NCBI GenBank assembly: GCA_041663425.1
Contig: JBAYMS010000003.1
Coordinates: 1,959-65,958, forward strand
Length of the DNA: 64,000 bases
Direction of reading: 5' to 3'
DNA from: Candidatus Omnitrophota bacterium
GTDB lineage: Bacteria > Omnitrophota > Gorgyraeia > 2-01-FULL-45-10
Both the position numbers and the translations under genes were made by a program. The notes below the pieces were generated by a model, which was not told the DNA's origin, did no database searches, and worked only from the letters and a program-made list of their open reading frames with translations. Numbering within the stretch: the stretch's first letter is position 1; the number at the start of each line of letters is the position of its first letter. Shown in pieces: positions 1 through 32,773 of this stretch.

Positions 1-3000
1 GAGTGGCGGATATCATATTCTTTCATTAACGCTGAACCGATATCGACGCCGGAACCTACAGGAAAATCGCCCGGCTTGTAAGGTGCCCTATAAAGCGTAA
101 GACCGCCCCTCTCCAGGATTAGCTCGATGCCCGTAGTATTCATGTCGGCTATGAGCGTTTCGGAAACAATGCTGAATACCGCTGTCCGCTCAATACCGGC
201 AGCGTTTTTATATGGCACTATCCAGATGGGGCGATTACTTACATATGCCACTCTTCCACCTGTCAGAGTTATATCTTCGCCGATCTTTCGGGCCATACGC
301 AACCGCATAGAGTCAGATATCATATTAAGCTGATCTGCCTGCGAAGATCCTAGAAGCCTAGTCTCAATATCATCTTTAGCGCCCTCATTATTTTGCCCAA
401 GAGTTAACGCTATAGGCCTGGTTTCGGTCCTTCTCAGGCTGCGATGCTGATAATAAACAAGGCTTATTTCTCTGACTGAGATCTCGCCAAGTTTGCCGTT
501 TCTGGCCGCTACTATGGCGTTAAGTTTCTGAGCCAGTAACTCTCTTTGTTCCGGGGTAAGCTTGTCGAGGTTCTTTATATATCCTATTGCCGTATGCACC
601 CCATTATGCCTGTCAAAAGACCTTATATCAAAATTGGCAGCGTCAAACAAACCTTCACGCAACTTTTGCAGCTCCAGGCTGCTATCCCCCTCACCAATGA
701 AAAGGATCTCTCCGGAATTATTTATCTTTATGGAATTAAAGCTCAGACCAAACGGCTTTCCGTTTGAAACCATATCTACAGCCTTAGTAAGATCGAGAGT
801 GGCCGGAGCTTTTCTCTCTGTAGAATCATAAGTCAAACTTGTTACAGGGCTTGCCTGGCTGCGAACCATAGTCCCTACCGTAGTATGCATATGATACGAA
901 TCGTAGAATGAGCCATTTTCCTGACCGATAACCTCAGTTATGGCTTGCTGCACTTCTTTGGCCGTCTCAAGAAAATCTTTAAACTTACCGGTATCCTGCT
1001 TAAGATAAGCTACTGAGGTAAGCCCATACTGAGTGGTCGAAGGATTATTATCTACAAGCCGCTTGGAATAACTATTCCCAGGCTGCGGAATAGTTATATT
1101 CGGTAAAGTTCCAATCTGAGGCTGTCCGGAAACCGGCTTTGCATTATTATCAGCCATCAACATAGCTTCAACTTCCGGCAGAGAATCTAATACATTCAGC
1201 TTCTGGCCTGGTCTGCCCAGCTCCAATGTCTCGGCTTTCAACACTTCATTGTTAGACACCGTCCTGTGAGAATAGACCACAACCCTGAGGCTGTCTATTG
1301 AAAAATCCGGCAGCTCATCCATTCCCTCTTTTTTGAAAAGGGTATTAAGCTCATCTATCTGCCGCTGATCGATAGGCCTCGTAACACGGCCAAGGGTAAT
1401 ATGCATCGGAGCTTCTCTTTTTTCTGTCGGCAGAGTGGCTAAAGCATCCATAACCTTTAAAGTCTTATGCCCGTCTTTGTCCACATTAAATTCGCTGACC
1501 GGCTCAACTGTAAAATACAATTCTCCATCAAGTGAAGAATATTCAAATCCGGTAATTTTCAGGCTGAATGGCCTGGAAGATGAAGCAGTTTGGGCAATAT
1601 ATTCAGACAGGTCGCCCATGCTATTATCCGTCATTCTTTCCTTAATATCAGAGACAGCGTTTGTCAGCTCGGTAAATGCAGCGCTCTTTGAAGTCGGAAT
1701 ATCGGTATCAAAATTTCTTGTCCTTACTACAGGGCGGATCGTTATGAACAGCCCGTCGCTGCCCTGGTCACGGTTAAATTGAACCCTGCCGTTCGTTATT
1801 TCCTCTATCTTCTTACGAATTTCTGTAATGCCCCGGCTTAAATCCTGATTACCTTTATCAAGATCAACATCCGCCAGAACAGTTATTCCCAGCCCTCTTT
1901 TCCCGTTCTTGTGGATATTGTCGGCGATATGAACCGTATCAACAACGCGCTTGAAACCATCCACACCAAGTTGATCAAGGTAGGCATGCGCTTCAACGGT
2001 CAGCTGCTTAGCCAGAAGATGTTTGTATTTCAGATATATCATATGGAAGAATCCTTTATCTTCAATGACTCTTCCCAATGAATCACGCCGAGGCTTCTCC
2101 AGATAGTCCTTCTTCTCTTTCTCACTATTCCAGTATCTGTATTTACCATTTGCGTCAGGAACATCGTTTATAATATCACTGTAAACCATGTCGTAAGCCT
2201 GGGCGATCTCCCTATTAAGTGACCTTAATCCAAATATCTCGCCCATAAGAAAAGAGATGTGATTTCTCAGGAAACCAACATGCGGAACCGGCTGCTCAGC
2301 TGCTGAGCGCGGTAGCGCAAACTCAATACCTGCCAGGAATATATCACGATATACACGAAGATGCCTGTACTCAGTTTTAATCGTGTTTATCTCATCCGCG
2401 GCATACAGCATTGGCCCGCGGCTCTTCTTGGCTTCTTTAGATGCCTGACCGGCGTCTGTTCTTATTTCAATTTTGGGTTTCCCATATAGCGTACCTATAT
2501 ATTCACGCATCTTTACTTCCAGATACTCCTTAAGCGTTATATATTTCTGTCCGTTAAATTCGATGGGCTTACCATTATCATTTTCTATGTAGAATCGGCG
2601 GTCGCGCGCACCAGAAAGAATATTACTGCTGCCTCCCGTAGCATCGGAAAATTTTTTGATCAGATACTGAAAATGAGACAACCCCAGCTCATCTATAAGC
2701 ACAGGATTATTCATTACGGCATCGACATACCATTCCGCATTCGCGGGCCTGGAATTTTCCGGCATACCGAAATACTCTTCCAGCTTTACTGTGTCGTCCT
2801 TGTTTATAATGAGATCCGTAAACATAGAGTCAAACGGAATTCTCCTGCCAACCCTCTTCGCAACCGCATCTTCTATCATCCGAAGCATGTCAGGTATGCT
2901 GAATTCTGTCGTCTCGTTATCGCGATTCGGATTAATTATCAGAACTATCGGGATGTCGCCTTTGGCCCGGCGCTTCTCTAAAGCTTCGGCTAAGCCTTCT

Positions 3001-6000
3001 ACCATAAAATGCGGCATGATGCTGGTCAAGAAACTGCCCGGCCCGAAAATTATTCCTTTTGTCTCAGCATTCTCAACAGCGGCTATCATATCCTTATTAG
3101 CCGGTGTGCTTCTATTGGTCCGTTTTCCATCCTGGTCCACCAACCCCAGATCTTCGATCTTGGAAAAATTGGCCGTTTCGCTAAAATGCGTCTGCATCTT
3201 TGTAAACCTGCTTCTTATATAAACATTCTTTCCGCCCATCACAAGAGCCTTAGTCTCTGCTTTATCAGACCTGGCAACCCCAGGCTTATAAACCATACCC
3301 GTTCCATCAGTTGCTATAAGACGCTGCTTATCTTCGTTCGCTAATTTTACCGCCGTCTCTTCAACAAGACCTTCAGGCTCTATCAATTCCGCAAATTCTG
3401 AATCGCCTACCTTAATAGCAAAGTTCCTGTCAACTTCTGACATGCGTAAAACAACCGGAAGCATGCCTACAAACACTTTTTTCTCCTCGCCGGCCTTTAT
3501 TGTATATTCTTTATATAAATTTGTGTCATCCTTGTCGAGTATTTTAACGGTGGTTTCGCCTCTGGCTTTGTCAACATGGACTACAAGCGCGCGCAGTTCC
3601 TCGACAGATTTAACAACGCCATTCTCGCTCACTTTCGGTTTCACCTCTATTATAACGACATTATCTCTGTAAACAGCATACATCGTTTCGGGATTATTAT
3701 GCGACAAAGAAACCCTGCCGTTCCTGACTCCCGCAAGCTCTGCCATGGAATCGAGTGCTACCTGAAATTTGCTATAATCAGCTTCCGTTGCAAGCATAAA
3801 ATCGCGGCTGCCCGGAGCATGGGTAGGTTTGGCAATGCCTAAATAGTCCAATGCGCTTATCAGCATCAGGTTTCGTATTGACGCTCCGCTTACAGGGATT
3901 ACGGATTTTTCGAAATAATTAGCATCGATACGGCGCGCTAAATTTAAAACACTCGCGGCAAAATACGCAAAATCTTCGCTCAACACATTTGTCTTCTGTA
4001 TTCCTCCTATTCCCTGCTTATTTATAACGGTCTGGAGAACGATACGGTTTAGGAGCTTTACGGATAATTCAAAGAAAGAATTAAGATATGTGACATTTCC
4101 GGCATCGTCACGATAAACGATCTGACCGACGTGTTCTCCCGCGTCCGCAGGAAGCTCTTTCTTTGCGATTGCCTCCGCTATTTTTTCTTCTTCAGAAGGC
4201 ACTACATCTATTCTGCCCTGGGCATCCAAAAGTTTATATAGCTTGTCCGCTTCGGCAAATCCTTCAAAGATAGAATTAACCATATCTCCGGGGGAAGGCA
4301 TCCAGCCATAACCTTTATTTATGAGCCCGGTAACACTTTTAAATGTAGATCCGCCGTCATCGGTAGAACATTGCATACTTCTGACATAAGCGCCCATCTT
4401 CACAAGAGGCTTAATAGAAGCTAAAAGGCCGGTGCCGCCTCCAAAAGCAAGGATAGTCTTTCTATCTTTCGTCCTGTCTCGCCCAGCCATAATATTTTCT
4501 ATGGTCTTTTCAAAGCTTCGGATCTTATCAGCATCTGTGGTTGGAGCAAACATACCGGCTATCACATCGTCAGGGCTCTCCAATCCCATCTCTTTATGTG
4601 TTTTCAGGGCTTTATCTATATACTCCATCATCAATTTTTCTTTACCGCCAAAAACCTCAAGAAGGGATTTGCGCTGCTCTGCTATAAGCCTTGCGCGCAA
4701 AATAAATTCTGTTAATTTATCGTTATCAGCCCTGCCAAAAACCTTATCCTGCAGGCCAAGCCCGTCCTGAAGGTTTCCCTCGTCGAGCGTCATCTCTTCC
4801 CTGACGCCCAGTCTTATGCCTTTACCTTTGCCTCTAAGATAGGTATGATTTCCAACATTTACCCCTGGAACAGCAGGGTTTGAAGAAAGAAATCCTTCGC
4901 CGCCTTCGTGAAATAAGGCGATATGCCCGACTTCGTTATTATTGATACACAGTTCTGAGATAGCTATTATTTGCCCATCCGAAAAACCAAATACATTTTT
5001 ATCGTTCTCTTTCAGGACAACTATGTTGCCTTCCCGCTGCTTGTCTTTTATAAACTGGATAATTTGTCCTGCGATCTTTTTATCTTTTCTGCTTAACCCG
5101 GCACTTTTAACTGCGCCCTCCATCGCTTTGATCTGGCGGTCTATAACACTGTCGTGCGCCTTACCTAAAACACTCAGGTCAAAGGAGTAGCCCTCTCCCT
5201 GAGAAGTCTTGGCAGTAAGCGTTAATTTTTTACCGTTCGCGGATAGGGTGCCTTTAAACCCTGTTGCCGCGCAGCCGTCAGGTCTTCCTATTAAACCGCC
5301 AGTAGGCGGGCCTGTCGAATCCACCGGAAGAATCGCAGCGCCCGAAGGCATCTTTGTAACCTCGGGAAGCTGGGAAGCAAAAGCCCTCTGGAACTCTTCG
5401 TTAAATTCATTTGTAGACGTTATAGCATCTATTATAACTTTTACGGTTTTTCCATCGGCGCTCTTACCCTGTTCTTTTAAATAATTAGTGAGGCTAAGCT
5501 TCATTCCGGATATATAAGCCTGTTTGATAAAATTCTCATCGCGTGTTAAAACCTGATTTGGATAAGCAGCCAATACTCTGCGCAGCCATCCACTCACAGC
5601 ATATGAAAACCAGGTTTTCCTGAAATTTACCGTTCTGTCCGTAATGCCTTCTACAAGACTCACTATTTCAGCGTCCATGGGCGAGCACTGAAGGAATGCT
5701 TTTAATTCCTTAGGGGACATCGTTGCAAGCTCAACAGCCGATATAGGCGCAAGCATACCCTTCTTCGAAGCCTCGGGGCTGGCCAGTATATCTTCTATCG
5801 GGGTGCGCTGATTGGTAAGGACCTGAATATATGGAGTGGGGACATCTTTTGTGATGGAAGGACATACTACCACATAAGACACGCCGCGTTTCTCGAGAAG
5901 TTTCGACATGCCTTCAGAGTGGAATCCGCCCGTGACAAGAACCGCCACCTGCAGTTTATCCTTCTCCATCGCTTTTATCGTATTGTCAACAAGCGCCTTA

Positions 6001-7355
6001 TCGCGCTTCATAGCTATAACGTAAAATTCCTCAAGCTTAGGTATGCTCTTGGCAACAGCTTCTGTGGGCGGCTCAACCTCATAGCTTAAGCCGTACTTTT
6101 CGCCCTGTTTCTTTATGAAATCGGTAAATGCCTCGTGTGTAAACCCTTCCCTGTGCGTCTCAAAATAATTAAAATCACCATTAAGCAATTTGATATTGGC
6201 CATGCCTATAAGAATATCTATGTGGCGCGATAATTTATCAAGAGTCCTCTGGTCGTCGCTCGTAAATAGCTTCTCTTTTATATCGGACTCAACCGTTTTT
6301 ATTTCATCGAACAATTTTTCATTATCGATCTTCGCGTAAACCGAATTATATATTATGTAGTTATAAAGGTTTGGATATTTTTTCGCTAGATCAATGTCAT
6401 TCTGGAGCGCAAGCTTCTTAAGATGATTATAGAATTCTACCGAGGAGATGGCGCCTGTTTTGAATGCTATAGACTTCGATACCATATCCGTAAGCTCATC
6501 CTTAGATACCGCTTTTGAGAGCTCATCTATGAGGATAGCCCTCTCCCTATCGGTAATACTGAAATTTATCTTCTTTTCATATGTAAGAACGCTTGTGATC
6601 CTGAATAGATTTTCATAGTTGCGCACGTTTATTTTTTGCTTCTCGGCCATATCCTGTAGGAATCTTATATAATCGTTAAATTGAAGCTTCTTTGATTCGT
6701 AATCCTGAGATTTGGCATCCATCGCCTTAAGGTCGGCGCTGTAGATTAAACCTTTAAGACGGCTTAATGAGTTTCTTATGGAATTATAATATTTCTCTGT
6801 CTCGGCTTTAAGAGGATAACTCGAGGTAAAAGCATTCAAGTTTTGAATGTAGGATTCGCGGTCTTCCGCACCGAATAATTTTATAGGATAGTTTTTGGTA
6901 ATAGAGAGAAATTCCGGCCCTGTGATCTCGCCCTTCTTCATGAAATAAGTAGCAACTTCTTTACGCACATCTTCATCCGGGAATGCCTTAAACCATGCCG
7001 TATCAATAATGCCATCCGCGCCTTCAACCGATATAAGGCTAAGGCCGTGATTATTTATAAGGCCTTCGAGGATATTAACAATGTTGGTTTGGGCCTCATA
7101 ATTGCAGTGTGCATCCTGAATATTTATTATGAGCTTGTTTGAATTACCTGAGAACTTTGATTTGATGATCCCATGGTCTTTTTCTATAACAATGTTGTTA
7201 ATATCGGCTGGCGACTGAGTCTTTTTAGGGGCGTGATTCTTTTTTTGAATGGATTCTGCAAAAGTTATGTTTGAAAAAACAAAGGAAAGAATTACAAGGA
7301 TCGATACTGACTTGCAAAATAAGCTCTTACGACAGAATTTTGGTAAAACTTCCAT
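1..7355 (-). CDS. Giant ORF, 5'-complete and 3'-truncated by the window edge (>2,450 aa visible). It has a signal-anchor, a Tiki/TraB-like N-terminal domain and a YvcK/CofD-like domain. It is a paralogue of the N-terminus of the 8,360-aa ORF.
   Basis: ATG at 7355-7353 (minus) with AAAAGGAGAG 6 nt upstream. Hand translation gives MEVLPKFCRKSLFCKSVSILVILSFVFSNITFA..IINIQDAHCNYEAQ... with no stops in the sampled segments (7355-6600, 5940-5820, 4460-4320, 3060-2920, 1740-1380, 120-60). The frame is confirmed by the conserved motif LVTGGFHSEGMSKLL at 5940-5820, matching ALITGGYHTRGISDLL of gene A. All plus-strand ORFs here are under 150 aa. The ORF is absent from the supplied track, presumably because it has no stop inside the window. 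Confidence 0.8.
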   Translation of the reverse strand, partial: MEVLPKFCRKSLFCKSVSILVILSFVFSNITFAESIQKKNHAPKKTQSPADINNIVIEKDHGIIKSKFSGNSNKLIINIQDAHCNYEAQTNIVNILEGLINNHGLSLISVEGADGIIDTAWFKAFPDEDVRKEVATYFMKKGEITGPEFLSITKNYPIKLFGAEDRESYIQNLNAFTSSYPLKAETEKYYNSIRNSLSRLKGLIYSADLKAMDAKSQDYESKKLQFNDYIRFLQDMAEKQKINVRNYENLFRITSVLTYEKKINFSITDRERAILIDELSKAVSKDELTDMVSKSIAFKTGAISSVEFYNHLKKLALQNDIDLAKKYPNLYNYIIYNSVYAKIDNEKLFDEIKTVESDIKEKLFTSDDQRTLDKLSRHIDILIGMANIKLLNGDFNYFETHREGFTHEAFTDFIKKQGEKYGLSYEVEPPTEAVAKSIPKLEEFYVIAMKRDKALVDNTIKAMEKDKLQVAVLVTGGFHSEGMSKLLEKRGVSYVVVCPSITKDVPTPYIQVLTNQRTPIEDILASPEASKKGMLAPISAVELATMSPKELKAFLQCSPMDAEIVSLVEGITDRTVNFRKTWFSYAVSGWLRRVLAAYPNQVLTRDENFIKQAYISGMKLSLTNYLKEQGKSADGKTVKVIIDAITSTNEFNEEFQRAFASQLPEVTKMPSGAAILPVDSTGPPTGGLIGRPDGCAATGFKGTLSANGKKLTLTAKTSQGEGYSFDLSVLGKAHDSVIDRQIKAMEGAVKSAGLSRKDKKIAGQIIQFIKDKQREGNIVVLKENDKNVFGFSDGQIIAISELCINNNEVGHIALFHEGGEGFLSSNPAVPGVNVGNHTYLRGKGKGIRLGVREEMTLDEGNLQDGLGLQDKVFGRADNDKLTEFILRARLIAEQRKSLLEVFGGKEKLMMEYIDKALKTHKEMGLESPDDVIAGMFAPTTDADKIRSFEKTIENIMAGRDRTKDRKTILAFGGGTGLLASIKPLVKMGAYVRSMQCSTDDGGSTFKSVTGLINKGYGWMPSPGDMVNSIFEGFAEADKLYKLLDAQGRIDVVPSEEEKIAEAIAKKELPADAGEHVGQIVYRDDAGNVTYLNSFFELSVKLLNRIVLQTVINKQGIGGIQKTNVLSEDFAYFAASVLNLARRIDANYFEKSVIPVSGASIRNLMLISALDYLGIAKPTHAPGSRDFMLATEADYSKFQVALDSMAELAGVRNGRVSLSHNNPETMYAVYRDNVVIIEVKPKVSENGVVKSVEELRALVVHVDKARGETTVKILDKDDTNLYKEYTIKAGEEKKVFVGMLPVVLRMSEVDRNFAIKVGDSEFAELIEPEGLVEETAVKLANEDKQRLIATDGTGMVYKPGVARSDKAETKALVMGGKNVYIRSRFTKMQTHFSETANFSKIEDLGLVDQDGKRTNRSTPANKDMIAAVENAETKGIIFGPGSFLTSIMPHFMVEGLAEALEKRRAKGDIPIVLIINPNRDNETTEFSIPDMLRMIEDAVAKRVGRRIPFDSMFTDLIINKDDTVKLEEYFGMPENSRPANAEWYVDAVMNNPVLIDELGLSHFQYLIKKFSDATGGSSNILSGARDRRFYIENDNGKPIEFNGQKYITLKEYLEVKMREYIGTLYGKPKIEIRTDAGQASKEAKKSRGPMLYAADEINTIKTEYRHLRVYRDIFLAGIEFALPRSAAEQPVPHVGFLRNHISFLMGEIFGLRSLNREIAQAYDMVYSDIINDVPDANGKYRYWNSEKEKKDYLEKPRRDSLGRVIEDKGFFHMIYLKYKHLLAKQLTVEAHAYLDQLGVDGFKRVVDTVHIADNIHKNGKRGLGITVLADVDLDKGNQDLSRGITEIRKKIEEITNGRVQFNRDQGSDGLFITIRPVVRTRNFDTDIPTSKSAAFTELTNAVSDIKERMTDNSMGDLSEYIAQTASSSRPFSLKITGFEYSSLDGELYFTVEPVSEFNVDKDGHKTLKVMDALATLPTEKREAPMHITLGRVTRPIDQRQIDELNTLFKKEGMDELPDFSIDSLRVVVYSHRTVSNNEVLKAETLELGRPGQKLNVLDSLPEVEAMLMADNNAKPVSGQPQIGTLPNITIPQPGNSYSKRLVDNNPSTTQYGLTSVAYLKQDTGKFKDFLETAKEVQQAITEVIGQENGSFYDSYHMHTTVGTMVRSQASPVTSLTYDSTERKAPATLDLTKAVDMVSNGKPFGLSFNSIKINNSGEILFIGEGDSSLELQKLREGLFDAANFDIRSFDRHNGVHTAIGYIKNLDKLTPEQRELLAQKLNAIVAARNGKLGEISVREISLVYYQHRSLRRTETRPIALTLGQNNEGAKDDIETRLLGSSQADQLNMISDSMRLRMARKIGEDITLTGGRVAYVSNRPIWIVPYKNAAGIERTAVFSIVSETLIADMNTTGIELILERGGLTLYRAPYKPGDFPVGSGVDIGSALMKEYDIRH
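2900..4470 (-). other. YvcK/CofD (UPF0052, PF01933)-like domain in gene 3
   Basis: Hand translation gives KTILAFGGGTGLLASIKPLVKMGAYVRSMQCSTDDGGSTFKSVTGLI (4460-4320) and KGIIFGPGSFLTSIMPHFMVEGLAEALEKRRAKGDIPIVLIINPNRG (3060-2920). This matches the family signatures vviGGGtGls..LrgL, vaDDGGSsG and iiGPGSlfTSilPnLlvpgiaeAi as recalled. The spacing is about 470 aa, longer than free YvcK, which implies an insertion. Confidence 0.6.
5830..7130 (-). other. Tiki/TraB/GumN-like domain of gene 3 (paralogous to the N-terminal domain of gene A)
   Basis: IINIQDAHCNYEAQTNIVNILEGLINNHGLSLISVEGADGIIDTAWFKAFPDE... and, C-terminally, LVTGGFHSEGMSKLLEKRGVSYVVVCP. The C-terminal GxxH..G motif is typical of the TraB/Tiki family. 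The first motif is the non-canonical QDAH. Confidence 0.4.
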
Positions 7356-7420: not shown

Positions 7421-7449
7421 AGTCTATCATATATAAGGAAGCAAGTCAA
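7421..7449 (-). promoter_or_regulatory. Candidate sigma-70-type promoter for gene 3 (TTGACT-17-TAGACT)
   Basis: Minus strand reads TTGACTTGCTTCCTTATATATGATAGACT in the AT-rich spacer about 70 nt upstream of the gene 3 ATG. The -10 element is imperfect (4/6). Confidence 0.3.
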
Positions 7450-7577: not shown

Positions 7578-10500
7578 TTATGCCGCGCTGCTGAGCAGCA
7601 GCACCGCGTTTCTATAACTCGATATCTCCTTTTCGATGCCTATTGGCAGTATCGGCCTAAATTTGAACCTACCGCTCATCTTCAGGTCGTCTATTACGCC
7701 AGGAGGTAGTTCTTTTTCGCCACTCACTACCAAGCTGACCAGTGTGGCATAAGAGTGTATAGCGGCAAGCACCTTAGTGCCGTTTATATCTATCTCGTCC
7801 AGTTCCAGGAATTTTTCTTCGCCTGGTTTTTCGTTTTCTTTGAGCAGCTCACCCCTGGCAGCACGGACACCTATATACTTACGCTCTGTATTCATCTGCT
7901 TCGCTATGCCGCCCATCATGTCATCGTATGAAGCATAGTCATGCTTATTGATGAACCTGACCCTGCCTACGTCCTTGATAGAGCCGCTTGAATTCAATAT
8001 AGCAAAAGCCTCTGTCTCTGTCTTGACTTCGTCTCCGCCGATAATATAGGTAGTAATGCCCTGTTCAGCGGCTTCGTTGATATTGTCTACTGTGTAAGGA
8101 TCTGACAAGTTGGATTTTTCACTTGTAACTATAACCACAGGGCGATCTTCAGACAGCATGTCCTTAACGCGCGGCACGCTCTTATAATATGCAGCCTGCA
8201 CCTTTTCATCAGATTTTCGTTCTGCTATAAGCCGGCGCAGCTTAGCAAGCCTCTCCTGTCTTTCAAGCATCTCGGTCCTATTCGGCCTGGCGCTAAGATA
8301 GTTGAGTATCGCCTGTTCGAGATCAACTTTTCCAAGGTCAGGGAGAAGGGCTTTAATAGTTGCGTCTATTTCATTTCGTATGGCATCATCTATAGAGGTC
8401 ATCCTGAGTATAATTCCGTAATCATTGGCCAGTTTCATCGTAGCGGCTTCCCTGACAATCCTTTCATTTTCCTCCGGACTAAAACCTATCGTCTCGTCAA
8501 TATATATGCCTGCCTGGTTATTTTTTAATTCCAATTCTTTAGGCAAATCAACCCTTCGGACTTCTATATTGAGCCCGGAGCGTCTGAAAGATTCTCTCAG
8601 CCCTTCTTCCTGCTCAGGCGTGACTGATTTCGGCACACCAATAACCAGCCCTGCGGCAGGCCTTTCTTTCAGAGCCTGGACTTCGCCTATCAATCCATTA
8701 ATAGCATACCTGTCATCTGATTCATTTATATACCGATTAAATATCTCCGCCAGGATCTTCACCCTATCGCCCTTTGAAGCAATAAGCGGCGTTTTCGCCG
8801 ATCGCTCTCTATTATGCGATGCTTCAATATCTAAGCGGAAATTAAGCATCTCTCCCAATATGATCGCTAATGCAACAACATCATCCTGAGGCATGGCGGC
8901 ACGCCCTTCTCTCTGCCTTTTTACACTTATATAGTTGTTACGCAGAATACTTTTACGATAACTGTCAGCGGCTACTTCGTCGGTTATCGGAGACACAGAA
9001 TCGTTATCGATGAAAACAACCCGGTCCGCACCATGCAAGCTTTCGCCCGGAGAAATCACTATACCCGCGGGATTTATGTCACCCGCTACACAGCCATTAT
9101 CAAAATAGGTCTTCTTATATGCATCTAATACCGCCAGAGCCAGATCAATGAATTTATCGTCGTTACCTTCCTCCTGATGTAAAACAAAATTTTTAGATAC
9201 GTAATTCCACAGACTTTCCCCTTTTACGTATTCAGTGATAAGAGCGTCTCCGTAAAACTCGCCCTCCAACGTCGTCCCCCTGACGTCAAGCAGCCCAACA
9301 AGGTTAGGTATAGATGAGTTTATATTATTGCGGTTTATCTTATTGGCAAGAATCTCCGCCTGCCGCCTTATAATAAAATCTGAATTCTTCGAATCCAGCG
9401 CGGCCTTTACTACATAATCATGCCCGTTTTCCAGGACAACACCGTTAGCAAGTTTTTGCTCAGGCCCTTCATATCTGAAACGCATCGCACCCCATTGTTT
9501 AACAAGCCTGTTTGCCATAGAAAGCTTTTCCTGGAATTTGAAATGCTCGTTAAAAAATCCATGGTCTAATTGAACTATCGGCGAAACCGCACCGGACGGC
9601 CTGCCGGAATATGCAGCGCCTAGCACAGCCACACCATAAAGTGAAATGAAATTTATCAGATGCGGCAAAATAACAATATCTTTTGGTATAGGTATTACAA
9701 AATAAGCCAGCAGAATGCCTATAACAGTTATGGATAATATAACCGGAAGAGCAGCGGATCCCGCTCTAGAGTATCCTCCATGATCGCCTTGTCTCAGACT
9801 ATCTTTTGCGCCCGATATTATCTTCCTTATGATCTCTGATATCTGACCGCTCGTTATATGAAACACAGAGACCATCTCTTTAGGCGTCTGACCCTGCGCA
9901 GCACGCTCAAATATCTCCCTGTTCCTGGGGCTTATTTTTAATTCGTCAAAAATTTGCTGCAATCTGACCTTTCGATTAACGAATTCTGCTTCGCGCACAG
10001 CTTCGTCGCCTGGCCTGTCCTCAAGGTGTTCCATGTCTATAATATTAGAACTGACTGATTCTCTGGCGATCCTTCTCCTCTCAGTCACATTATGATTTCT
10101 CATTTCGGTATGTATGATTTTTGCCGCCCATGTGGAACGCTGGAATCCCAGTTCGGGTTTAAATGTAATCGCAGCCTTCCAGAGCCCTCCGATAGAGTTG
10201 TTGCTGTTTCCATGAAGCCCGGCGGAGACCAATTTATCCTCACTAAGATATGGGTATTTCTTTTTATAGTATTGCGCTATTTGCCTGACCAGATATTCAT
10301 TATCCCTGATAAAGTCACTTATCCCTTCCTCGTTTCCTGACTGGAAAGAATGGTCTCGCGCAGCACGTATCATCATGAGCGCACCGAGGCCTATTGCACT
10401 ATTTGCAAAATATGGCGCCGCGGCGGTAAAATATCCCGAGGCGAAATAGATGTAATCACTTAAGAACTGCGCGAAACCAAATTGAGCGATAGCGGCAAGA

Positions 10501-13500
10501 TATGGCATGCTAACAAATACTAGTCCTGTGAGAAGAGCAAGCGCTATAACCATAGCCGTAGAGACAAACCCGGCACGGTTCGCTTCAGATAACGCAGTGA
10601 CGGCGAACTCGTAACCGCGGGAGGCGGAGTCACGTAATCCATTCATAGCAGAGTTTCTCAAGTCCTGATCGATGGCGCTGTTTTTAATAATAGATAATAA
10701 TGCGGTGACGGCGGGTGCGTGGCCGCGGGAGGCGGAGTCAGACAATATATCTATAGTAAATCTTCTTGAGTCCTGATCAATGACACTGTTTTCAACAATA
10801 GATAATAATGTAGGTGTAAGATCATTAAGTGCGGTGACGGCGGGTGCGTGGCCGCGGGAGGCGGAGTCAGACAATCCACCTATAGCGCCGATTCTTAAGC
10901 GCCAACCGATGGCACTGTTTTCAACAATAGATAATAATGTAGGTGTAAGATCATTAAGTGCGGTGACGGCGGGTGCGTGGCCGCGGGAGGCGGAATTCCA
11001 CAATATGCTTATAGCAAATTTTCTCAAGTCCTGATCGATGGCGCTGTTTTCAACAATAGACGACAACGCAGCGATGGCGGGCACGTAACCGCGGGAGGCG
11101 GAGTCATGCAATCCATTCATAGCAGAGTTTCTCAAGTCCTGATCGATGGCGCTGTTTTTAATAATAGATAATAACGTAGGTGTAAGATTATTAAGTGCTG
11201 TGACGGCGAGTTCTTGACCGCGGGAGGCGGAGTCATGTAATGCATTCATAGCAGAGATCCTTAAGCCCGGATCGATAGTATTATTTTCAACAATAGACAC
11301 ACCATCTATCGCAATATTCTTTAGTTCTTTCGCTGGCTTATCATCCAAACCAATCCTCATCTTATCTATAAACTCATCGTTCCATCCCTGTTTTTTAATA
11401 TGCTCATCGTACGACAATCCTAAACCTTGCCCACGATAAAATTTCTCTACTGCCTCATCCTGTTCGTCAGCCATATCCGCCGGAAGAGGAGGAGTATTTC
11501 CGGTGTCAGAAAAAAGCTGCAGGAACGCTATAATGCCTTCCGGGTTGTTCCCAAAAAGATGGTTTATATGTCTGCGCAGCAGCACAGAATGATCCGGCGT
11601 GTATATAGCATGTTGATATAAAGGAAGCCCCGTATGAATAATGTTGAACTCCTGCGGCCGCGTCAAGGCATTATGCACTATAGCCATAGCTACTGCTATA
11701 GTAAGCTGCATTCTCCCAAAATATTCATCTTGTCCCAATTTTATGGGGGCAGGCGCAAAAGTATTCAGGGCCACATTATGTGTTCTTCCATATTTAGTAT
11801 CAAAGTAGAACGGGGTTTCATTTTTTTCCGTATAGCTTGAACCTAAAAGCGCTATTTCATCAAAAGTAAGTATGCTATGGCTGTATGCAAATTTACTCCA
11901 GCAATACTCCATAGATTTACCTATAAAAGTCAGCGCCTTAAGTGAATCATCGCTAAATTTCTTTTTCGAACCGACGTGTATGTGCAAACCCTGCGATAGC
12001 ATCAATCCGTTACGATTACGATCGACATATTCCATTATTTTCCTGAGACCTGAATTTAACCTGTCGAACCCTTCTCTGTTGTTTGGTAACCCACCCTCAC
12101 CCGTAGTTACTTCTATATTAGCCCCGTCTCTTTTGATTACCCAGCCCTGATCTTTTAAACCTTCCTCGGTAGCAAATCGATCTAGCCCATCATAAAGAAC
12201 ATTCGTTGCCGCAATGTTCTTGTCATTTATATTATTACTGTTAAGAAGAGCCATTTCGATCTCTATGCCGAATGTCATATCTTTAGGCATGTTCGGCACG
12301 CCGTCTTTGTGATATCGATCAAGTCGTTTTACTATATTAAGGTAAACCACATACCACTCTTCCGAGAGAGAAGCAAGATCCAGTGCTACGATATTTATTA
12401 TGCGCCTCGAGAATTCATCATCCTGAGTCTTAAATGCATCTATAGAACCAAGGATCATCTCAAGCTCTTTTATGTCATATTTAAAAGAAACGTTAACTTT
12501 AATTAAAAGACGGTATGCCTTACTATGCGCTTCTTTATTCCCGGATTTAGTTAAAATAAGCAATGCTGCTTTTTTCAGAGCTTTCTCATCGTCCACACTT
12601 AAAACTATGCCCGTTTCATCTATAAAGAAAATATTATCAAGATGCGCTTTAAGCTCTCCCTTCTCCTCAAGGGCAATAACATCGGTTACGCTGGTTATAT
12701 TGCGAAGGGCTGATAAGGATACCTGACAATCTCTTTTTATTTCATCAAGCTTTTTCTGTTTCGTAGGAGTTAAAACGATAACCGTTTTATCCGGTAAGAG
12801 CAAATTATTTTTCATCACATATTCAGGTTTATAAATTTTATCTAGAGCGGGTGTTTTTGTAGCTACCATCGTGAGCACGCCGATGCCAATCCCGTTATTC
12901 GCAAGATACGGTAAGACGGAGAAAATATCATTCGAGGCAAAATAGATGTAATCGCTTAAGAACTGCGCGAAACCTAATTGAGCTATCGGTATTATGAAAT
13001 ATGCAATAAATAGGCCGGCAACAATAGAGGCCGTTAAAACAGGTATTAGCGTAAACCCTTTTTGATCAGATGGAGGAGTTTCGGGCGTTGCCTGGCCGGC
13101 AATATCTTCAACTTTCTTCAGGCGCTTGTCAAACGAATCAAACTGTTCCGTTAAAACTTTAAGCCTTTCGCCCATATCCGTAACAGCATTCTGCAAGGTA
13201 ACCAGCAAAGTAGGTTTTGCAGCATTTTCCGCATCCAGCATGGCACGTATACGCTTAAGGCTCGTGCCCAACATGCCCATTTCCCATCCTTTACCTGTTG
13301 CCGGAAATTCTAGTAATGGCTGCAGCAGTTTATAAAGCTCGTCGGAGACTGCAAGGCTCACCGGTGCCTTGACCCTATGGTCAGGATGAATAGAAAGCAT
13401 AATAGTCCGGTGCCATTTTTTATATTCTTCATTATCCAATACCTGCCCTGACACTATTTCCATTATCAGTTTTTTAGCGCCTTCGATATCGCCGTCAAGG

Positions 13501-19500: not shown

Positions 19501-22500
19501 TAAGGATCTTTTATTTTCTTTGTCAACTCACGGTCTTCCGCACCAAACACGTGCCATTGCAGCGCCCTAAGAAGATAGTGTTCTTCCACGTGCTTATCCG
19601 GATTCGATCCGGCTTTTAACATCATTATCTCAAGTTCATCCGGGGCTGTTTCCTTAAGATAATTTTTTATAGCTAAAACAAGCCCGGGATTCAGCATAAT
19701 AGCTGAATGGGCTATCTCGTGGAATAGGGCTACAGGATTGTCAGATATTGTTTTTGAAATGACTATAAGATCTGGCGTAGCAAACGAAATGACCGGATCG
19801 CCGGGATGAGAAAGCAGTATAACGTTTCCTTTAAAAGATTTAAGATACGTATCTATAATGGCATTCGCGACAGGATTGTTGTGTTTTTTAATGTCATCTA
19901 AAATGGTTTTTATATTCCTTGGCGGAGCACGACCGACAAAATCTGCCTTACTCAGATCTATAACATTACCCGTCTCCCTATCCTTTAATAAACCTGTCAG
20001 CCTATTTTCGGGTGCATTGTATTGCGGGACAGCACCTTCCACTGGATCGTACTTTCCTATCATACCTACCTGTGAACCCTCAATTATCGTGCCTTTGCCA
20101 TCATGGAAAAACTGACATTGCGGATATGCCTCGGCCTTTTCAAAAATAGCCCGCTCATGCTTTGCCCAGGCGGATACTTCTCTATCGCGCGCATTAATAA
20201 AAGTATTTGCGCTCATTATGTCTATGGCCGCGCCCATAGCGAGTCCTTCTTTCCTGGCTTTAGCTCTGCCGATGAGGACATTTCTGCGCTTCCAACCTTC
20301 TTTACGTGCAAGAAAGCCCACGTCTCCCATATCATTAGACCTGACCCATGACCTTACAACGGCCTTCCACTGAGATCCGATAGATGAGTCAACTGTCTTG
20401 ACGCTGAAAAGACCGTTGTTCAATTCTTCTTCTTCGAGGAAATGATCACCCAGTCTTAGTATATTGCGCACTCTTCTGGCATTTGCCCCAATGGGCCTTC
20501 TGATGAATTCTATTATCGCGCTTCTGTTCTTTTCAAGATCCTGCCCCTTATATAGATCCGCAAGTCGTATACTAACCATATCTTTTCCACTGAATTCCTG
20601 CTTATCAAAATTTGGGGTTATGAGCGCTGCGCGCAGCAAACCCGCCATCTCCTCGCGCCGCTCGGTGGAAATCCCTTCATCCCTTCCTTCTTCCACAGCC
20701 ATCAAATAGGCATGAAGTTTTGAATATTCTAAAAGAGTGTCAGAGACTAAGTCTACCTGTTTTGAATATGGCGTTACAACAGCTATATCGTCAGGGGCAA
20801 GATTGCGCTCATTCAAAAGCCAATTGACCCATGTAACCACCCTGCTGACTTCACCTATATTAACTATTCCTCTGTCAGCAGTATCTTTTCTGGCCCTTTC
20901 CGAAGAGACAATTTTTTCCTGATATATCCTTTTGTCCGTCAAACCTTGCCCATCACTGATCGCATAATGATCCCTTACCAATGTCCCGGTCTCTTCACGA
21001 CCGGCTTTCAGCCTACCATTGTAAAAATAGTTCTCTTCGTCTACTACTAAAGTACCCGACCGGCGCTGTATGTCAAGGAAACGGAAGCTGGGCCTTGTCA
21101 CTTTGAATACCGTATTATCGTAAAGATCCAGGGATTTTTCGAGAAGTGAAATTTTAAACCTTTCCACCACATCCGTCTCAAACACTTCGGCTAACGGCCT
21201 GTTCTCCCCGACTTCACTCCATCCTACGATCTCGCTCTGTCCGCTTAAGTCACGCAGTGCGGCTGCAATATCTTCTTTGCTGATACCATATGCCGGCAGC
21301 TGATCCTGGTCGCCTACGAATATGGCTTTTTTAACATCGCTGAGATTGGTAAACATCCAAAGCGCCCATAAAGACTCCGGAACCGTCGCCCTGCTAGACT
21401 CATCCACTATAACATAGTCCGTCTTCATGAGCTCCTGTCTATCTCTTACATCACGATCTCCGAAAAATCCATTTACAGTTCCGCAGACAAGATTAGGTGC
21501 TTTTTTCTGTATAATATTATCCAGAGCGGCAGCCTTATTCTCCCAGTCACCTAATATCTGAGGATCTACGGCATCCTCATTATTACCCACTCTGGCAAAA
21601 GGGATCTGTTTCACTCCTGACCGCTCCTGTTCACTGAACAGCCCATCTATATCCTTTAGCACCTTTAAAATGTTATCCAATGCGTCATTCTGCTGGGACA
21701 ATAACCTTAGCCTTTTCTTCTGGTTTTCGACTATCAGTTTTGCAAGAAGCGTTATGACCATGGTCTTTCCTGTGCCGCCCGGGCCCTGTATGAGCGTGAT
21801 GGGAATTTCCTCGCATAAACCGTCTATCAAGGCCTCTTTCTGTTCGGAATCAAGAGGATACTTAAGCATTCTTTCCAGCGGTTCTATAAGATCGCGCTCT
21901 ATGGCATTTCTTTTTTCAGCTATGGAGGATGCTCTGGCTTTATCAGGCACATCGATCAAAATCCCGAGAGATCTGTCTGCAATAGGCCGGCCTGTTGTAG
22001 CTAAACCGAAGGATTCGCCTTCACCTATAGACTGCTTCGTTGAGACTTTCAATCTTCCTATAATAGCAGCGAGCATTTCGCACTGTCTCTGCCAGACATT
22101 ATCCTTTACCATGACCAGTTTGCCGCCTTCGTTCAGCGCGTAGGACCACTGCATAAGCAGCTGATCATAACCTGCCCTTACCTTAGGCTGCTCAAATTTA
22201 ATGGTATCCTCTCCTACATAACGCACTCTAAAAAACGGCTGCAGCTCTTTCTGGTTTGATTTAGCAGGGCGGACTTTAAATGAATCGCCGCGCCTTACAA
22301 AATTTGCAATATCTATTTTTTGACCTGTCGTAGGATGTTTAAAGCCGGATACGTAAAGGAAGCCATTTCTCACACTAACCTGTTCAAATACGAATTCCGC
22401 GGCAGCGTCCTGGGATATGTGCATACCCTGCCTCGTCTTCTTATCCCTCTCGGCCTCCGACAGCATCATTGCCTTAGCGATAAAATAATCGTCCATAAGT

Positions 22501-28500: not shown

Positions 28501-31500
28501 AAAATAATACCCGTGGAGGTCCCAAAGCCTGTGCAGTCTGCCAGAAAAGCACCCGCGCCCACAAGAGCGCTGAAGAATAATTCTTCGAAACCGGCGAGGC
28601 CGGAGATCGCCCTGTATGACCATCCACGATCGTGCAGATAGTGAACAAGCCCGTCTCCTTCCACTGCGCCTCTCCATATAAAAGGCGTCATTCCTTCAGG
28701 AGCTATCGGCCCGCCCCCTTCCGGTTGCAGCTGTTCTGCTAATAACATTTTAGCCCATATTCTTCCGAGCAGTTCTACATATTCATCATCATTTATCGGG
28801 CCCACACTTTTCATGACGGAGGCAACTATATTGCTGACATCCCTTTGGATCCCTCTGGTATATTCATCTGCTATGCCCGGCCTTTTTTCTGCAGATATAA
28901 TATACGAAATGTCATCCGCGCCCATTTTATCTCCACGTATTCTATCAACTATTTTATCTATGACGGCTTCCTCTACGTTTACGGCAAGAACACTTAAAGG
29001 CTCACCAGGAAGAGCTGCTACGGATTTTTCTATCTGTCCAAGCAAACTTTCTATATCTTTTGACATCTGCACATCTTCCTGCGTAACTTTACCGCCCTGC
29101 GCTATGCAAAACTCTTTATTAAGGCCATCCAGCTTCACCCACAATTTCTTAGCATCTTTTTCGGAAATAGGAGAGTTTGCTATTATGAAATTTAAATCCT
29201 TAAAAAGCGATTTTATTACAGCCCGCGCTTCAGCACTCTTATCCACTCTGCGTCTTGAGATTAAAGAATCGCCCATAGCCACCTTAATATCAAAACCACT
29301 GACAAGCACTCCGGCGGTCTCAACAGCATTTTTTGGAGCCCCCCTTTCTCTCCTTTTAGCCCATGAGAATATACCTAAAATGCCGACGCTATACAGGAAA
29401 TTAAGCATAACTATTCTTATGCGCTCCGAGAATGTCCGCTTAACCGGCCTAACCTCTTTTTTTTGCTTTTCTGCAGGCGCGGGTACACCAGGCTTTTTTA
29501 TTTCCTCAGGCACTTTAATATCAGGAATATCCACGTCTACGGGCATCTGTGCTTTTTTCAGATCCGAAGGAGCTGTCACCGGCACTTGCCCCATACCTAT
29601 TTTTATCTTTCTAAGATACCAAGGCGTGCTGGTCGCCAGTGCCATACCAGCTTCTGCCGCAAGCATACCACCCATAAGAACGGCTATCATAAACCCTTTG
29701 ATTACGGGATTTATCCCGGCCGCAGGCGCGGCGGCTTTAGCAGTCTCTGGCACAACTTCTGCAGGCGCTAAATTTGAAGGAATAGTTGATGGTTGTTCTG
29801 ATACTACAGGAGCCTGAGGGATCACTGTCTCTGAAGTCTTTTCTACCGTTCCATGTATATTTGTTTTCGACCAGGATTCTGCCAGGAACGCTTCTACGCG
29901 CGCGCCGCCGCTACGGAATTTTGTTATCATTGCATCGCGCAAAGTTAAAAATTCATTCTTTCTGTTTTCAAAATCAGGCATTCTGTGAGCAGGGTTACTT
30001 TCGATCTGGGCAACCGGGTTATATTCACCCACTCGCAAGAAAGATTTTTGGAATGAAGTCGTCGGCATTGTGGAAATAATATGATAGCCGGCATATTCAG
30101 GACGGTTGAGCAAAAATTTCATAAGAGCCCTTCCTCTACCGCCTGCGTTTTCGAGATTGGGGAACGGGAAGAACTGGGTAAAAACGATGGTTTTATATTC
30201 CGTTATCGGATAGAAGTGAACCCGCACTTCATTTATCTGGATACCGTCTTTAAAAACTTTCAAATTCTTAAAAGATGCTCCGGCTTCGTTGTCAAACACA
30301 TCCTCGACAGTAAACTGATAACCCTCATTAATAAGATCATCTATGGTTAAGTCGCGCTTTTGCGGCAAAGGCTGGCTTGGCACCGGGACAATCTCTTCCG
30401 TCTTTTCCATCCCGGCCATTCTTCTGTTCACTTCTTCTCTTATGCTCTCTTTTAAATCACCTTCTATCCTTAAGATACGGCAGACAGTATCAAAGTCTTT
30501 ACCAGATGCTGCCATCCTGCTAGCAACGTCATCTACCAAGTCCTTAGTTTCTTTAAGCGATGATTGATACCGTGGTGCGGTGATTATTGATGCTTCAGCC
30601 CGGACAGCTTCCGCGAAGGCTTCAGGAGAAGGAGCGTCGCCCTGTGCAAAATTGGCAGTGGGAGCAATGTGCTGGTCGCCAATAGTGCCTTCATGTATCA
30701 CCGTGCTTTCATTTTGCGAGATCTGAATGGGTGATGTTTTTGTGGCCGGATGATGAGGTTTTATTATGCCTTTTTTAACAAGCTCATCATAGCTATCCTT
30801 ATAGCTTTCTATCCAGAGTTCCGCGATATTCCTTACGTTCTTACCCTGGCTTTTCGCCTGTTTTAAGTTTGTAACAATTATATCTTTTATAAAAGCTTCG
30901 ACCTTACCGGGATCCTGTATCGAATCCTTGAGATAGTCTTCTGTAAGCAGCTGATACTTGCCTGATTCCAGCTGTTCTTCGTAGTTCTCTTTCTTGTTGG
31001 TAAGTATGGCTACATATGGCCTCTCACCTTTGGATGCGTCAAACTTGGGGAGAATGACAAGGTATGAGGTGTCTTTGGCTTTGAGCAGATCGGATATGCC
31101 TCTTGTGTGATAACCGCCTGTGATAAGGGCGGCTACCGTCTGGCCTTCTTTGGTCATACGGCTTATAGTGTTGCTCAGTATAGTGTGATTACGTTTTTCA
31201 GCGGTGGTGTAGAAGCTTATGGCCGCAGGAATATTTGAGAAGATATTATTTAAATCGTAGCTGCCCTCTATGGGTATGTCATATTTTAAAGATTCTTCTT
31301 TGATGAAGCCTGATATGCATTCGGCATTACAGATAGCGATGTTCTTTTCCAGATACTCGAAGTCTGAATTGGTAAGCTTTAAGTCGAATATGTCGCGGAC
31401 GAAGCTTACGCACTTCAGTATGTCGTGCAGCTTCCTCTGGTCGGGGGAAGTGTAGAGTTTTTCTTTGATGGCGTCTTCTAAGTATTTGGCCTCTTCGAAT

Positions 31501-32745: not shown

Positions 32746-32773
32746 ATTATATCATATAATACTAACTTGTCAA
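32746..32773 (-). promoter_or_regulatory. Consensus sigma-70 promoter for gene A (TTGACA-16 nt-TATAAT)
   Basis: Minus strand reads TTGACAAGTTAGTATTATATGATATAAT. The -35 element is at 32773-32768 and the -10 at 32751-32746. It lies in the 198-bp AT-rich spacer about 85 nt upstream of the gene A ATG. A weak AAAGGAAAA lies about 12 nt upstream of the ATG. Confidence 0.55.

Follow-up and report, generated by a model that had tools for sequence, protein, structure and literature searches.

What is the N-terminal module that two neighboring giant genes of a Candidatus Omnitrophota bacterium have in common, and what might it do in front of downstream sequences that differ between them? The question is raised by a stretch of 64,000 nucleotides (nt) from contig JBAYMS010000003.1, referred to in its full length as the window, which consists of three head-to-tail giant open reading frames (ORFs), all on the minus strand, with nothing else of size:

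7355 to beyond position 1, minus strand: gene 3, with its ATG at 7355 and open at the left edge; 2451 amino acids (aa) visible
32660 to 7578, minus strand: gene A; 8360 aa
Right window edge down to 32859, minus strand: gene B; at least 10379 aa, N-terminus outside the window

The visible 2451 aa of gene 3 were identical to the first 2451 aa of protein P0093, giving a full product of 3104 aa. The favored explanation, with a probability of about 0.7, is that the module (here called the head) is an exported hydrolase of the Ere/TIKI type, borne by giant proteins whose remaining sequence (the cargo) is shuffled between family members.

The shared module and its family

A BLASTP alignment of gene 3 (aa 59-526) with gene A (aa 97-566) gave 173 identities over 471 positions (37%; 57% positives, 4 gaps, E 2e-94), far beyond chance and bearing out the extended identity of the two N-termini that a first-pass annotation had placed at positions 5830-7130, which correspond to gene 3 aa 76-509 within the shared region. 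The C-terminal GxxH..G motif described there was likewise common to both proteins, as TGGFHSEG in gene 3 and TGGYHTRG in gene A. No further similarity was detected at E ≤1e-5 in an all-versus-all BLASTP of the three gene products, while a family hidden Markov model (HMM) identified a single N-terminal copy each in gene 3 (E 1e-235) and gene A, and none along the 10,379 aa of gene B that lie in the window. The same HMM ruled out further copies, internal ones included, in all three ORFs. The module and its surroundings were laid out as follows:

7257 to 7355, minus strand: start of gene 3 and predicted Sec signal peptide, aa 1-33, MEVLPKFCRKSLFCKSVSILVILSFVFSNITFA followed by ES (Kyte-Doolittle scan)
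5778 to 7187, minus strand: shared module of gene 3, aa 57-526, alpha/beta core plus inserted helical lobe (pLDDT 91.8)
6861 to 7187, minus strand: N-terminal half of the gene 3 core, aa 57-165, a beta-alpha-beta unit bearing D81 (7113-7115), H83 (7107-7109), and E111 (7023-7025)
5961 to 6860, minus strand: all-helical lobe inserted in the gene 3 core, aa 166-465
6003 to 6005 and 5982 to 5984, minus strand: R451 and N458 of gene 3, on the helix preceding the C-terminal half of the core
5778 to 5960, minus strand: C-terminal half of the gene 3 core, aa 466-526, the GGFH strand-helix-strand with H479 (5919-5921)
5256 to 5777, minus strand: lineage-specific extension (aa 527-660) and Pro/Gly-rich linker (aa 661-700) of gene 3
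32475 to 32660, minus strand: N-terminus of gene A, ATG at 32660, hydrophobic segment at aa 42-62, WWIRLVAITLTVAFINQDIVWA followed by QEG
30963 to 32378, minus strand: shared module of gene A, aa 95-566 (AlphaFold2 pLDDT 92.6), with D121, H123 (32292-32294), E151 (32208-32210), R490, and H518

Two independent AlphaFold2 models, one for each gene, displayed the same architecture in the order of a hairpin strand, a strand-helix-strand unit, two short strands with helices, an all-helical lobe of ~300 residues, and a further strand-helix-strand unit. As modeled, the ~470-aa head would be a parallel-sheet alpha/beta core split by a helical lobe of ~275 aa. The length of this lobe was constant across the family (median 277 aa), and a search for members with a short insert that would allow a cleaner fold match found none, with lengths of 202-304 aa throughout. 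The lobe gave weak recurrent matches to PAH_ZNF598 (33 of 67 members, best E 3.4e-6) and DUF1722 (22 of 67).

The module started at a median of aa 58 and was preceded by a hydrophobic segment in 281 of the 289 family proteins that begin with Met, many of these segments ending in AFA. In gene 3, a positively charged start is followed by a hydrophobic stretch ending in TFA before ES, a short spacer, and then the conserved domain. Of the signal-anchor proposed in the first-pass annotation, the hydrophobic N-terminal segment stood and the anchor did not, since the pattern resembles, and is better fitted by, a predicted cleavable Sec signal peptide. A lipoprotein anchor was ruled out by the absence of a Cys after the signal peptide. 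In gene A, translation from the first ATG, the annotated start, would put 41 residues ahead of the hydrophobic segment, and the alternative start M33 (32564) would give the spacing typical of the family.

An exhaustive profile search returned 10,476 clusters (50% identity) at E ≤1e-3 and 7,397 at E ≤1e-30, with the module at residues ~2-620 of proteins of 1,000-6,362 aa in nearly all of the best 150 clusters. Nearly all of the 157 relatives in GTDB genomes were Omnitrophota. This very large family is almost exclusively Omnitrophota, and within it gene 3 and gene A are tandem paralogs of ancient origin; the paralogy suggested earlier thus holds in the form of two distinct old clades, which were separate in a neighbor-joining tree. 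Eighteen proteins had 42-65% identity to the gene A module versus 31-38% to that of gene 3, and the two module-bearing genes present at each of the loci L034 and L056 fell one in each clade. Tandem module-bearing genes were found at L034, L052, L056, and L062, and several genomes had two or more further module copies.

The order of the two genes was also shared with relatives. Where related loci extended far enough upstream, most had a giant ORF ahead of the gene 3 ortholog, in the same orientation and leaving the fetched region, and in 16 related loci the end of this ORF conserved the C-terminal region of gene A (tblastn, 24-53% identity, E 5e-11 to 1e-97), which had no Pfam match:

7581 to 8690, minus strand: C-terminal region of gene A, aa ~7991-8360, about 360-370 aa

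Owing to this gene-A-like C-terminus upstream in the 16 loci, the gene A to gene 3 order is considered old and conserved. Orthologs of gene A displayed conserved ends and a non-alignable middle of thousands of residues.

A trivial origin of the similarity, by recent local duplication, assembly chimera, or composition, would suit two genes that are adjacent and on the same strand. Against it, identity was just 37%, yet extended over 471 residues with 4 gaps; the gene A module was closer to P0206 and P0208 (60-65%) than to gene 3, and that of gene 3 was closer to L005 and L006 (68-84%) than to gene A; and the clades were separate in the tree, with the same tandem order in independent assemblies. 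Recent duplication and assembly artifact were ruled out by the closer relatives elsewhere together with the tree, and the probability of any such trivial origin is close to nil.

Superfamily placement and candidate catalytic residues

The module very probably belongs to the TIKI/Ere/ChaN superfamily as a new and divergent branch, because three weak and independent lines of evidence agree, namely the matches to PF04187, the structural matches from Foldseek, and the conserved residue set. PF04187 (Haem-binding uptake, Tiki superfamily, ChaN) was the only recurring alpha/beta Pfam family, detected below threshold in 21 of 67 members and, once the helical lobe was removed, in 14 of 30 (best E 1e-4 in a single-protein search), always on the FY..A..RD..N..GGFH segment at profile positions ~141-208 of 213. 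In Foldseek searches against the PDB with both models, every alpha/beta match was a TIKI-superfamily structure, including Bcr135 (3b55 and 2rad), EreC (6xcq and 6xcs), and ChaN (2g5g) for gene 3, and EreC 6xcs as the top match overall for gene A (E 0.064, probability 0.89), followed by 6xcq, Bcr135, and HopBA1 (5t09). The remaining matches were helical bundles on the inserted lobe.

In an alignment of 67 homologs, H83, E111, G112, G162, and Y169 (gene 3 numbering) were invariant, and D81, R451, N458, G476, G477, and H479 were nearly so. Conservation was similarly high in 284 non-redundant sequences, with Asp or Glu at position 81 in 283/283, H83 in 282/283, E111 in 284/284, R451 in 272/272, N458 in 270/272, and H479 in 271/271. 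The conserved His and Glu residues were placed just after predicted strands of the AlphaFold2 model, and the spacings from His to Glu (H83-E111 in gene 3, H123-E151 in gene A) and from Arg to His (R451-H479, R490-H518) were 28 residues each. Both spacings are also 28 between the catalytic residues of EreC (E47, H50, E78, R261, and H289; PMC7979712), as is the His-to-Glu distance in Bcr135 (H85 and E113) and RRSP (E3900, H3902, E3930, and H4030; PMC6254334). The TIKI/Ere-type catalytic His/Glu set is therefore present in the module, the correspondence being one of motif order and spacing and not of superposition. Immediately after the putative catalytic His, C84 (7104-7106, minus strand; DAHCNYEAQ) was found in 256 of the 284 sequences, and the gene A clade has Ser, Ala, or Thr in its place.

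In our reading of the models, the closest likeness in shape would be to the erythromycin esterases, which also carry a second lobe inserted in the core. The Ere group (EreA/B/C/D and Bcr135/Bcr136; 6XCQ/6XCS, 3B55, and 2RAD) gave the best structural match for both module models, whose alpha/beta core would, like that of Ere, be divided by another lobe that is largely helical. The residue order is also alike, with acid-x(1-2)-His, Glu 28 residues later, and Arg and His 28 residues apart, and a metal-independent hydrolase mechanism using activated water is plausible for both. The module differs in having no significant sequence match to Ere (no PF05139; Foldseek E 0.06 or worse), in a helical lobe that is ~150 aa longer (340 aa between E111 and R451 versus 183 aa in EreC), and in an acid at His-2, as in RRSP, instead of His-3. 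Furthermore, Ere proteins are stand-alone resistance enzymes of ~400 aa, whereas the module is predicted to be exported and is fused or adjacent to proteins of multiple kiloresidues.

Other members of the superfamily had more partial likeness. ChaN (PF04187, 2G5G) matches in the FY..A..RD..N...GGFH segment and is secreted, as is predicted for the module, but this haem-binding lipoprotein of ~250 aa has no counterpart of the long helical lobe. A TIKI-fold site of the 2His/2Glu type like that of the module is found in RRSP (DUF5 of MARTX toxins) and in TIKI1/2, and RRSP further shares the acid-x-His motif, the His-to-Glu spacing of 28, and its embedding in a very large secreted multidomain protein. 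RRSP, however, lies inside its protein and not at the N-terminus as a head, and it is an effector that is delivered into host cells; no sequence or structure match of the module to RRSP was detected; the TIKI proteases are metal dependent, whereas the module is proposed to be metal independent. That RRSP and TIKI are peptidases makes peptide bonds possible substrates for the TIKI fold. TraB/PrgY/GumN proteins (PF01963), placed in the same superfamily by literature cited in PMC6254334, follow by eye the same motif logic of strand-xxH, strand-E, an R(D/N) helix, and strand-GxxH-xG, although they are without the 275-aa helical lobe. PF01963 was not matched by any of the 67 members at E ≤10; of the Tiki/TraB-like assignment in the first-pass annotation, the TIKI-superfamily likeness remained and the PF01963 membership did not. 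The module is not a member of PF01963, PF04187, or PF05139, the last giving no Pfam match, and the likeness to erythromycin esterase is structural only.

Given that the full Ere-type catalytic constellation is kept, the most likely role for the head is hydrolysis without a metal, as a peptidase or esterase active outside the cytoplasm. It would combine an Asp/Glu-x-His motif after strand 1 and a Glu 28 residues later after strand 2 with a second half made up of the Arg and the His 28 residues apart, and the Sec-type signal peptide predicted in front of it would send it out of the cytoplasm.

Several points weigh against this explanation. No Pfam or NCBIfam model was reached at its curated threshold, with a Pfam scan of the two window modules returning noise alone and an NCBIfam scan of 67 members returning nothing recurrent; the best PF04187 score was 22.8 bits against a gathering score of 27.7, and its coverage was limited to the C-terminal ~60 profile positions. 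No Foldseek match reached E ≤1e-3 and TM-scores were about 0.2-0.27. Profile searches of PDB sequences with the full and the insert-deleted core alignments returned nothing relevant, the noise consisting of centrin EF-hand pairs in the lobe (E 0.026) and of Lmo0740 and RuvA (E >0.1). An hhalign comparison of the core alignment with an alignment of Escherichia coli YbaP gave a probability of 5%, which is a weak test of TraB likeness as the YbaP alignment was shallow and held only close enterobacterial homologs (67-82% identical). In addition, export of the head rests on sequence prediction, hydrolysis and its target are inferred, and some TIKI-fold proteins are non-enzymatic, such as the haem-binding ChaN and PMT.

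The last point leads to a different role, in which the head would be a TIKI-fold binding or anchoring domain and the His, Glu, and Arg residues would hold a ligand, haem, or metal without hydrolysis. The sole recurring Pfam family is that of the haem-binding ChaN, inactive TIKI-fold proteins such as PMT are known (PMC6254334), and the invariant Tyr residues Y169 and Y509 would be in keeping with such a role. This is nevertheless improbable: the full Ere-type set, including the Arg that stabilizes the transition state, is invariant in ~280 sequences with Ere-like spacing, PMT is without the 2His/2Glu motif (PMC6254334), and the models match the enzymes EreC and Bcr135 better than they match ChaN.

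Shuffled cargo, split genes, and the possible substrate

The first-pass annotation had described differing downstream domains behind the two heads, and comparison of the cargo among relatives confirmed the cargo as mosaic. Both the CofD domain proposed for gene 3 and the helicase proposed for gene A were recovered, whereas the kinases proposed for gene A were not, as no kinase family was detected at E ≤0.001:

2676 to 4463, minus strand: CofD/YvcK-like cargo of gene 3, aa ~965-1560, with PF01933 at aa 1414-1526 (E 1.5e-16)
20256 to 21854, minus strand: SF1 helicase domain in the cargo of gene A, aa 3603-4135, PF13086 and PF13087 (AAA_11/AAA_12)

The heads closest to that of gene 3 (P0116, L006, P0131, P0125, and L005) were 68-71% identical over aa 1-666, and none of them had cargo that could be aligned with gene 3, the similarity ending at ~aa 666, just before the Pro/Gly-rich linker. 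More distant heads (51-60%) instead carried gene 3 blocks at 41-61% identity. The block at aa 891-2046, which includes CofD, was identified in P0104 and P0119 (heads 55-60%, cargo 41-42% identical), and aa 2480-3104 in P0098 (head 57%, cargo 61% identical) and also, at the different position 794-1476, in P0115. The heads and the cargo hence differ in their history, which implies block exchange. In gene A, conservation was limited to the head and the C-terminal domain.

Split forms of the same arrangement were also found. A gene of ~530 aa with its own predicted signal peptide encodes the module by itself in L003 and in L077. It is followed a few bases downstream by a ribosome-binding site and then by a gene of 3,300 or 3,018 aa, again with its own signal peptide; the L003 cargo (aa 58-3074) aligned with aa 555-3790, the cargo portion, of P0180, a fused protein of 4,006 aa. 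These forms show that the head is autonomous and that a covalent linkage is not required, and they suggest that head and cargo both cross the membrane. A few copies of the module also stood truly alone, such as L001 in "Candidatus Ancaeobacter aquaticus."

The constancy of a strictly N-terminal head in front of shuffled cargo could alternatively mark it as a trafficking or secretion handle comparable to the N-termini of CdiA, Rhs, and MafB, recognized by a dedicated export machinery with the cargo as payload. The common breakpoint at ~aa 666 before the Pro/Gly-rich linker fits such a handle, as do the secretion and pilus genes near Omnitrophota giant genes described in 10.64898/2026.06.07.730766. 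Its probability is nonetheless low, slightly below that of the non-enzymatic binding domain: a plain Sec signal peptide is already predicted in front of the head, in L003 and L077 the cargo lacks a head and comes with a signal peptide of its own, making the head dispensable in cis for export, and one would not expect a mere handle to conserve a catalytic set without variation. Moreover, no immunity-like small ORFs adjoin the genes, and variation extends beyond the C-terminal tip, with the C-terminus of gene A itself conserved.

The same observations delimit the analogy with polymorphic systems drawn in the first-pass annotation, of which the conserved head with shuffled cargo was retained and the immunity-type small ORFs were not found. 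Polymorphic toxin systems (CdiA, Rhs, and MafB) likewise have a conserved N-terminal part and cargo that differs between close relatives, but their immunity genes, demarcating motif, and short C-terminal toxin tip have no counterpart here, the 198- and 222-nt gaps between the giant ORFs holding no small immunity-type ORFs. Variation in the present family spans thousands of residues, and the conserved part is enzyme-like and not a secretion domain.

Under the favored explanation of an exported hydrolase head, the cargo blocks would be exchanged between members and diverge fast while the head stays constant, and the occurrence of head and cargo as adjacent genes suggests an autonomous unit that works with or on a giant exported protein. 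Within the hydrolase frame, the leading guess, tentative and held at somewhat less than even odds, is that the substrate is the giant protein itself or its paralogs, which would be matured or cleaved in cis or in trans; this substrate is favored because the head is constant whatever the cargo and is genetically coupled to it. Peptide substrates have a precedent in the TIKI and RRSP peptidases of the same fold (PMC6254334). Alternatively, prey or the envelope could be the target of the esterase or peptidase, which would then be carried at the protein tip.

Gene B and the giant proteins of Omnitrophota

The N-terminus of gene B lies outside the window, and its visible start was compared with relatives to judge whether it carries the module. 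The exact 60-mer at the right edge of the window was not present in genome or metagenome contigs, and no relatives came out of a metagenome scan that used the first 400 residues in view. A tblastn comparison, however, aligned visible aa 11-210 with P0021 of L086 from aa 677 (30% identity over 213 aa, E 6e-22):

63369 to 63968, minus strand: gene B block, visible aa 11-210, homologous to the post-module stretch of L086 (P0021)
50919 to 51416, minus strand: SecA_DEAD-like domain of gene B, visible aa 4195-4360, PF07517 (E 2.4e-12)

If the layout is as in L086, gene B would start ~670 codons beyond the window and carry the module, which is rated as rather probable and no higher because cargo blocks move. 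The block common to gene B and L086 might be a small conserved domain after the head in one subfamily; its motifs, at gene B visible aa ~100-180, are FHE(G/V)(Q/R)E..W and HI(R/K)A.AEQ..(R/K)FG..E.GLTPY. In L086 (nt 4826-4828, P0021 codon 762) and in L025 (nt 11414-11416), the module-bearing gene contains an in-frame TAG past which homology runs on in the same frame; that of L025 lies within a conserved QRTPxE motif, at the Glu position of QRTPIEDIL in gene 3, and the read-through part of L086 is the one matching gene B. These TAGs could be sequencing errors, pseudogenes, or stops that are read through. The SecA-like region of gene B matched ordinary SecA proteins alone in a protein search, and a domain scan found no SecA_DEAD match in gene 3 or gene A. 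TPR repeats were also present in gene B (38499-51398, minus strand), and about 20 hydrophobic segments, predicted to be transmembrane, in gene A.

Promoter-like sites were identified in front of two of the genes:

7421 to 7449, minus strand: promoter-like site before gene 3, TTGACT-17-TAGACT, TG-extended, 9/12, by consensus match alone
32746 to 32773, minus strand: sigma-70-type site before gene A, TTGACA-16-TATAAT, TG-extended, a perfect 12/12

The perfect site is found 86 nt ahead of the start of gene A. With a sigma-70-like site in front of both gene A and gene 3, the giant genes may each be transcribed separately. GC skew was negative in 30 of 32 two-kb windows across positions 1-64000 with an almost steady drop in cumulative skew, which fits the minus-strand location of all coding sequence. 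The module-coding stretches fell in 2-kb windows of lower GC (0.41 and 0.42-0.44), and one gene A window containing only cargo was just as low (0.41).

The locus resembles the Omnitrophota giant proteins of West-Roberts et al. (2023) in phylum, in the neighboring giant genes, in mostly unannotated, divergent sequence, and in the many predicted transmembrane segments of gene A, and gene B (at least 10,379 aa, PF07517) falls in their class of Omnitrophota giants with a SecA-like domain. In size, the products range here from ~3,100 aa (gene 3) to more than 10,000 aa (gene B), with most family members at 1,000-6,000 aa, while two Omnitrophota giant-protein papers focus on a class of >30,000 aa (10.1101/2023.11.21.568195; 10.64898/2026.06.07.730766). 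The N-terminal regions of giant proteins are described in the former as those that "generally lack identifiable domains" except for C39 and S8 peptidases (10.1101/2023.11.21.568195). A term search of both papers found no mention of TIKI, TraB, or CofD, nor does the head module itself appear in them.

The module is an unannotated, very large family of a known superfamily in a new architectural context, and the family appears to be without a Pfam or NCBIfam model. As the giant proteins of Omnitrophota are almost wholly unannotated, the head offers a conserved handle on sequences that are otherwise hard to read, a marker with which giant genes can be found, classified, and oriented in fragmented metagenomes, and, at ~500 aa, a small and expressible piece for biochemistry. 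The family shows cargo evolving by block exchange behind a fixed head, and it gives a concrete hypothesis for the maturation of proteins of multiple kiloresidues, namely hydrolytic processing outside the cell. A further step, in which the head is the defining catalytic part of a phylum-wide "head-and-cargo" system and the common maturation protease of giant exoproteins, is considered unlikely. If true, it would represent a new kind of polymorphic giant effector that is organized around an N-terminal enzyme instead of a secretion domain, the two parts being permanently coupled, by fusion or as adjacent genes, in ultra-small and putatively predatory or epibiotic bacteria.

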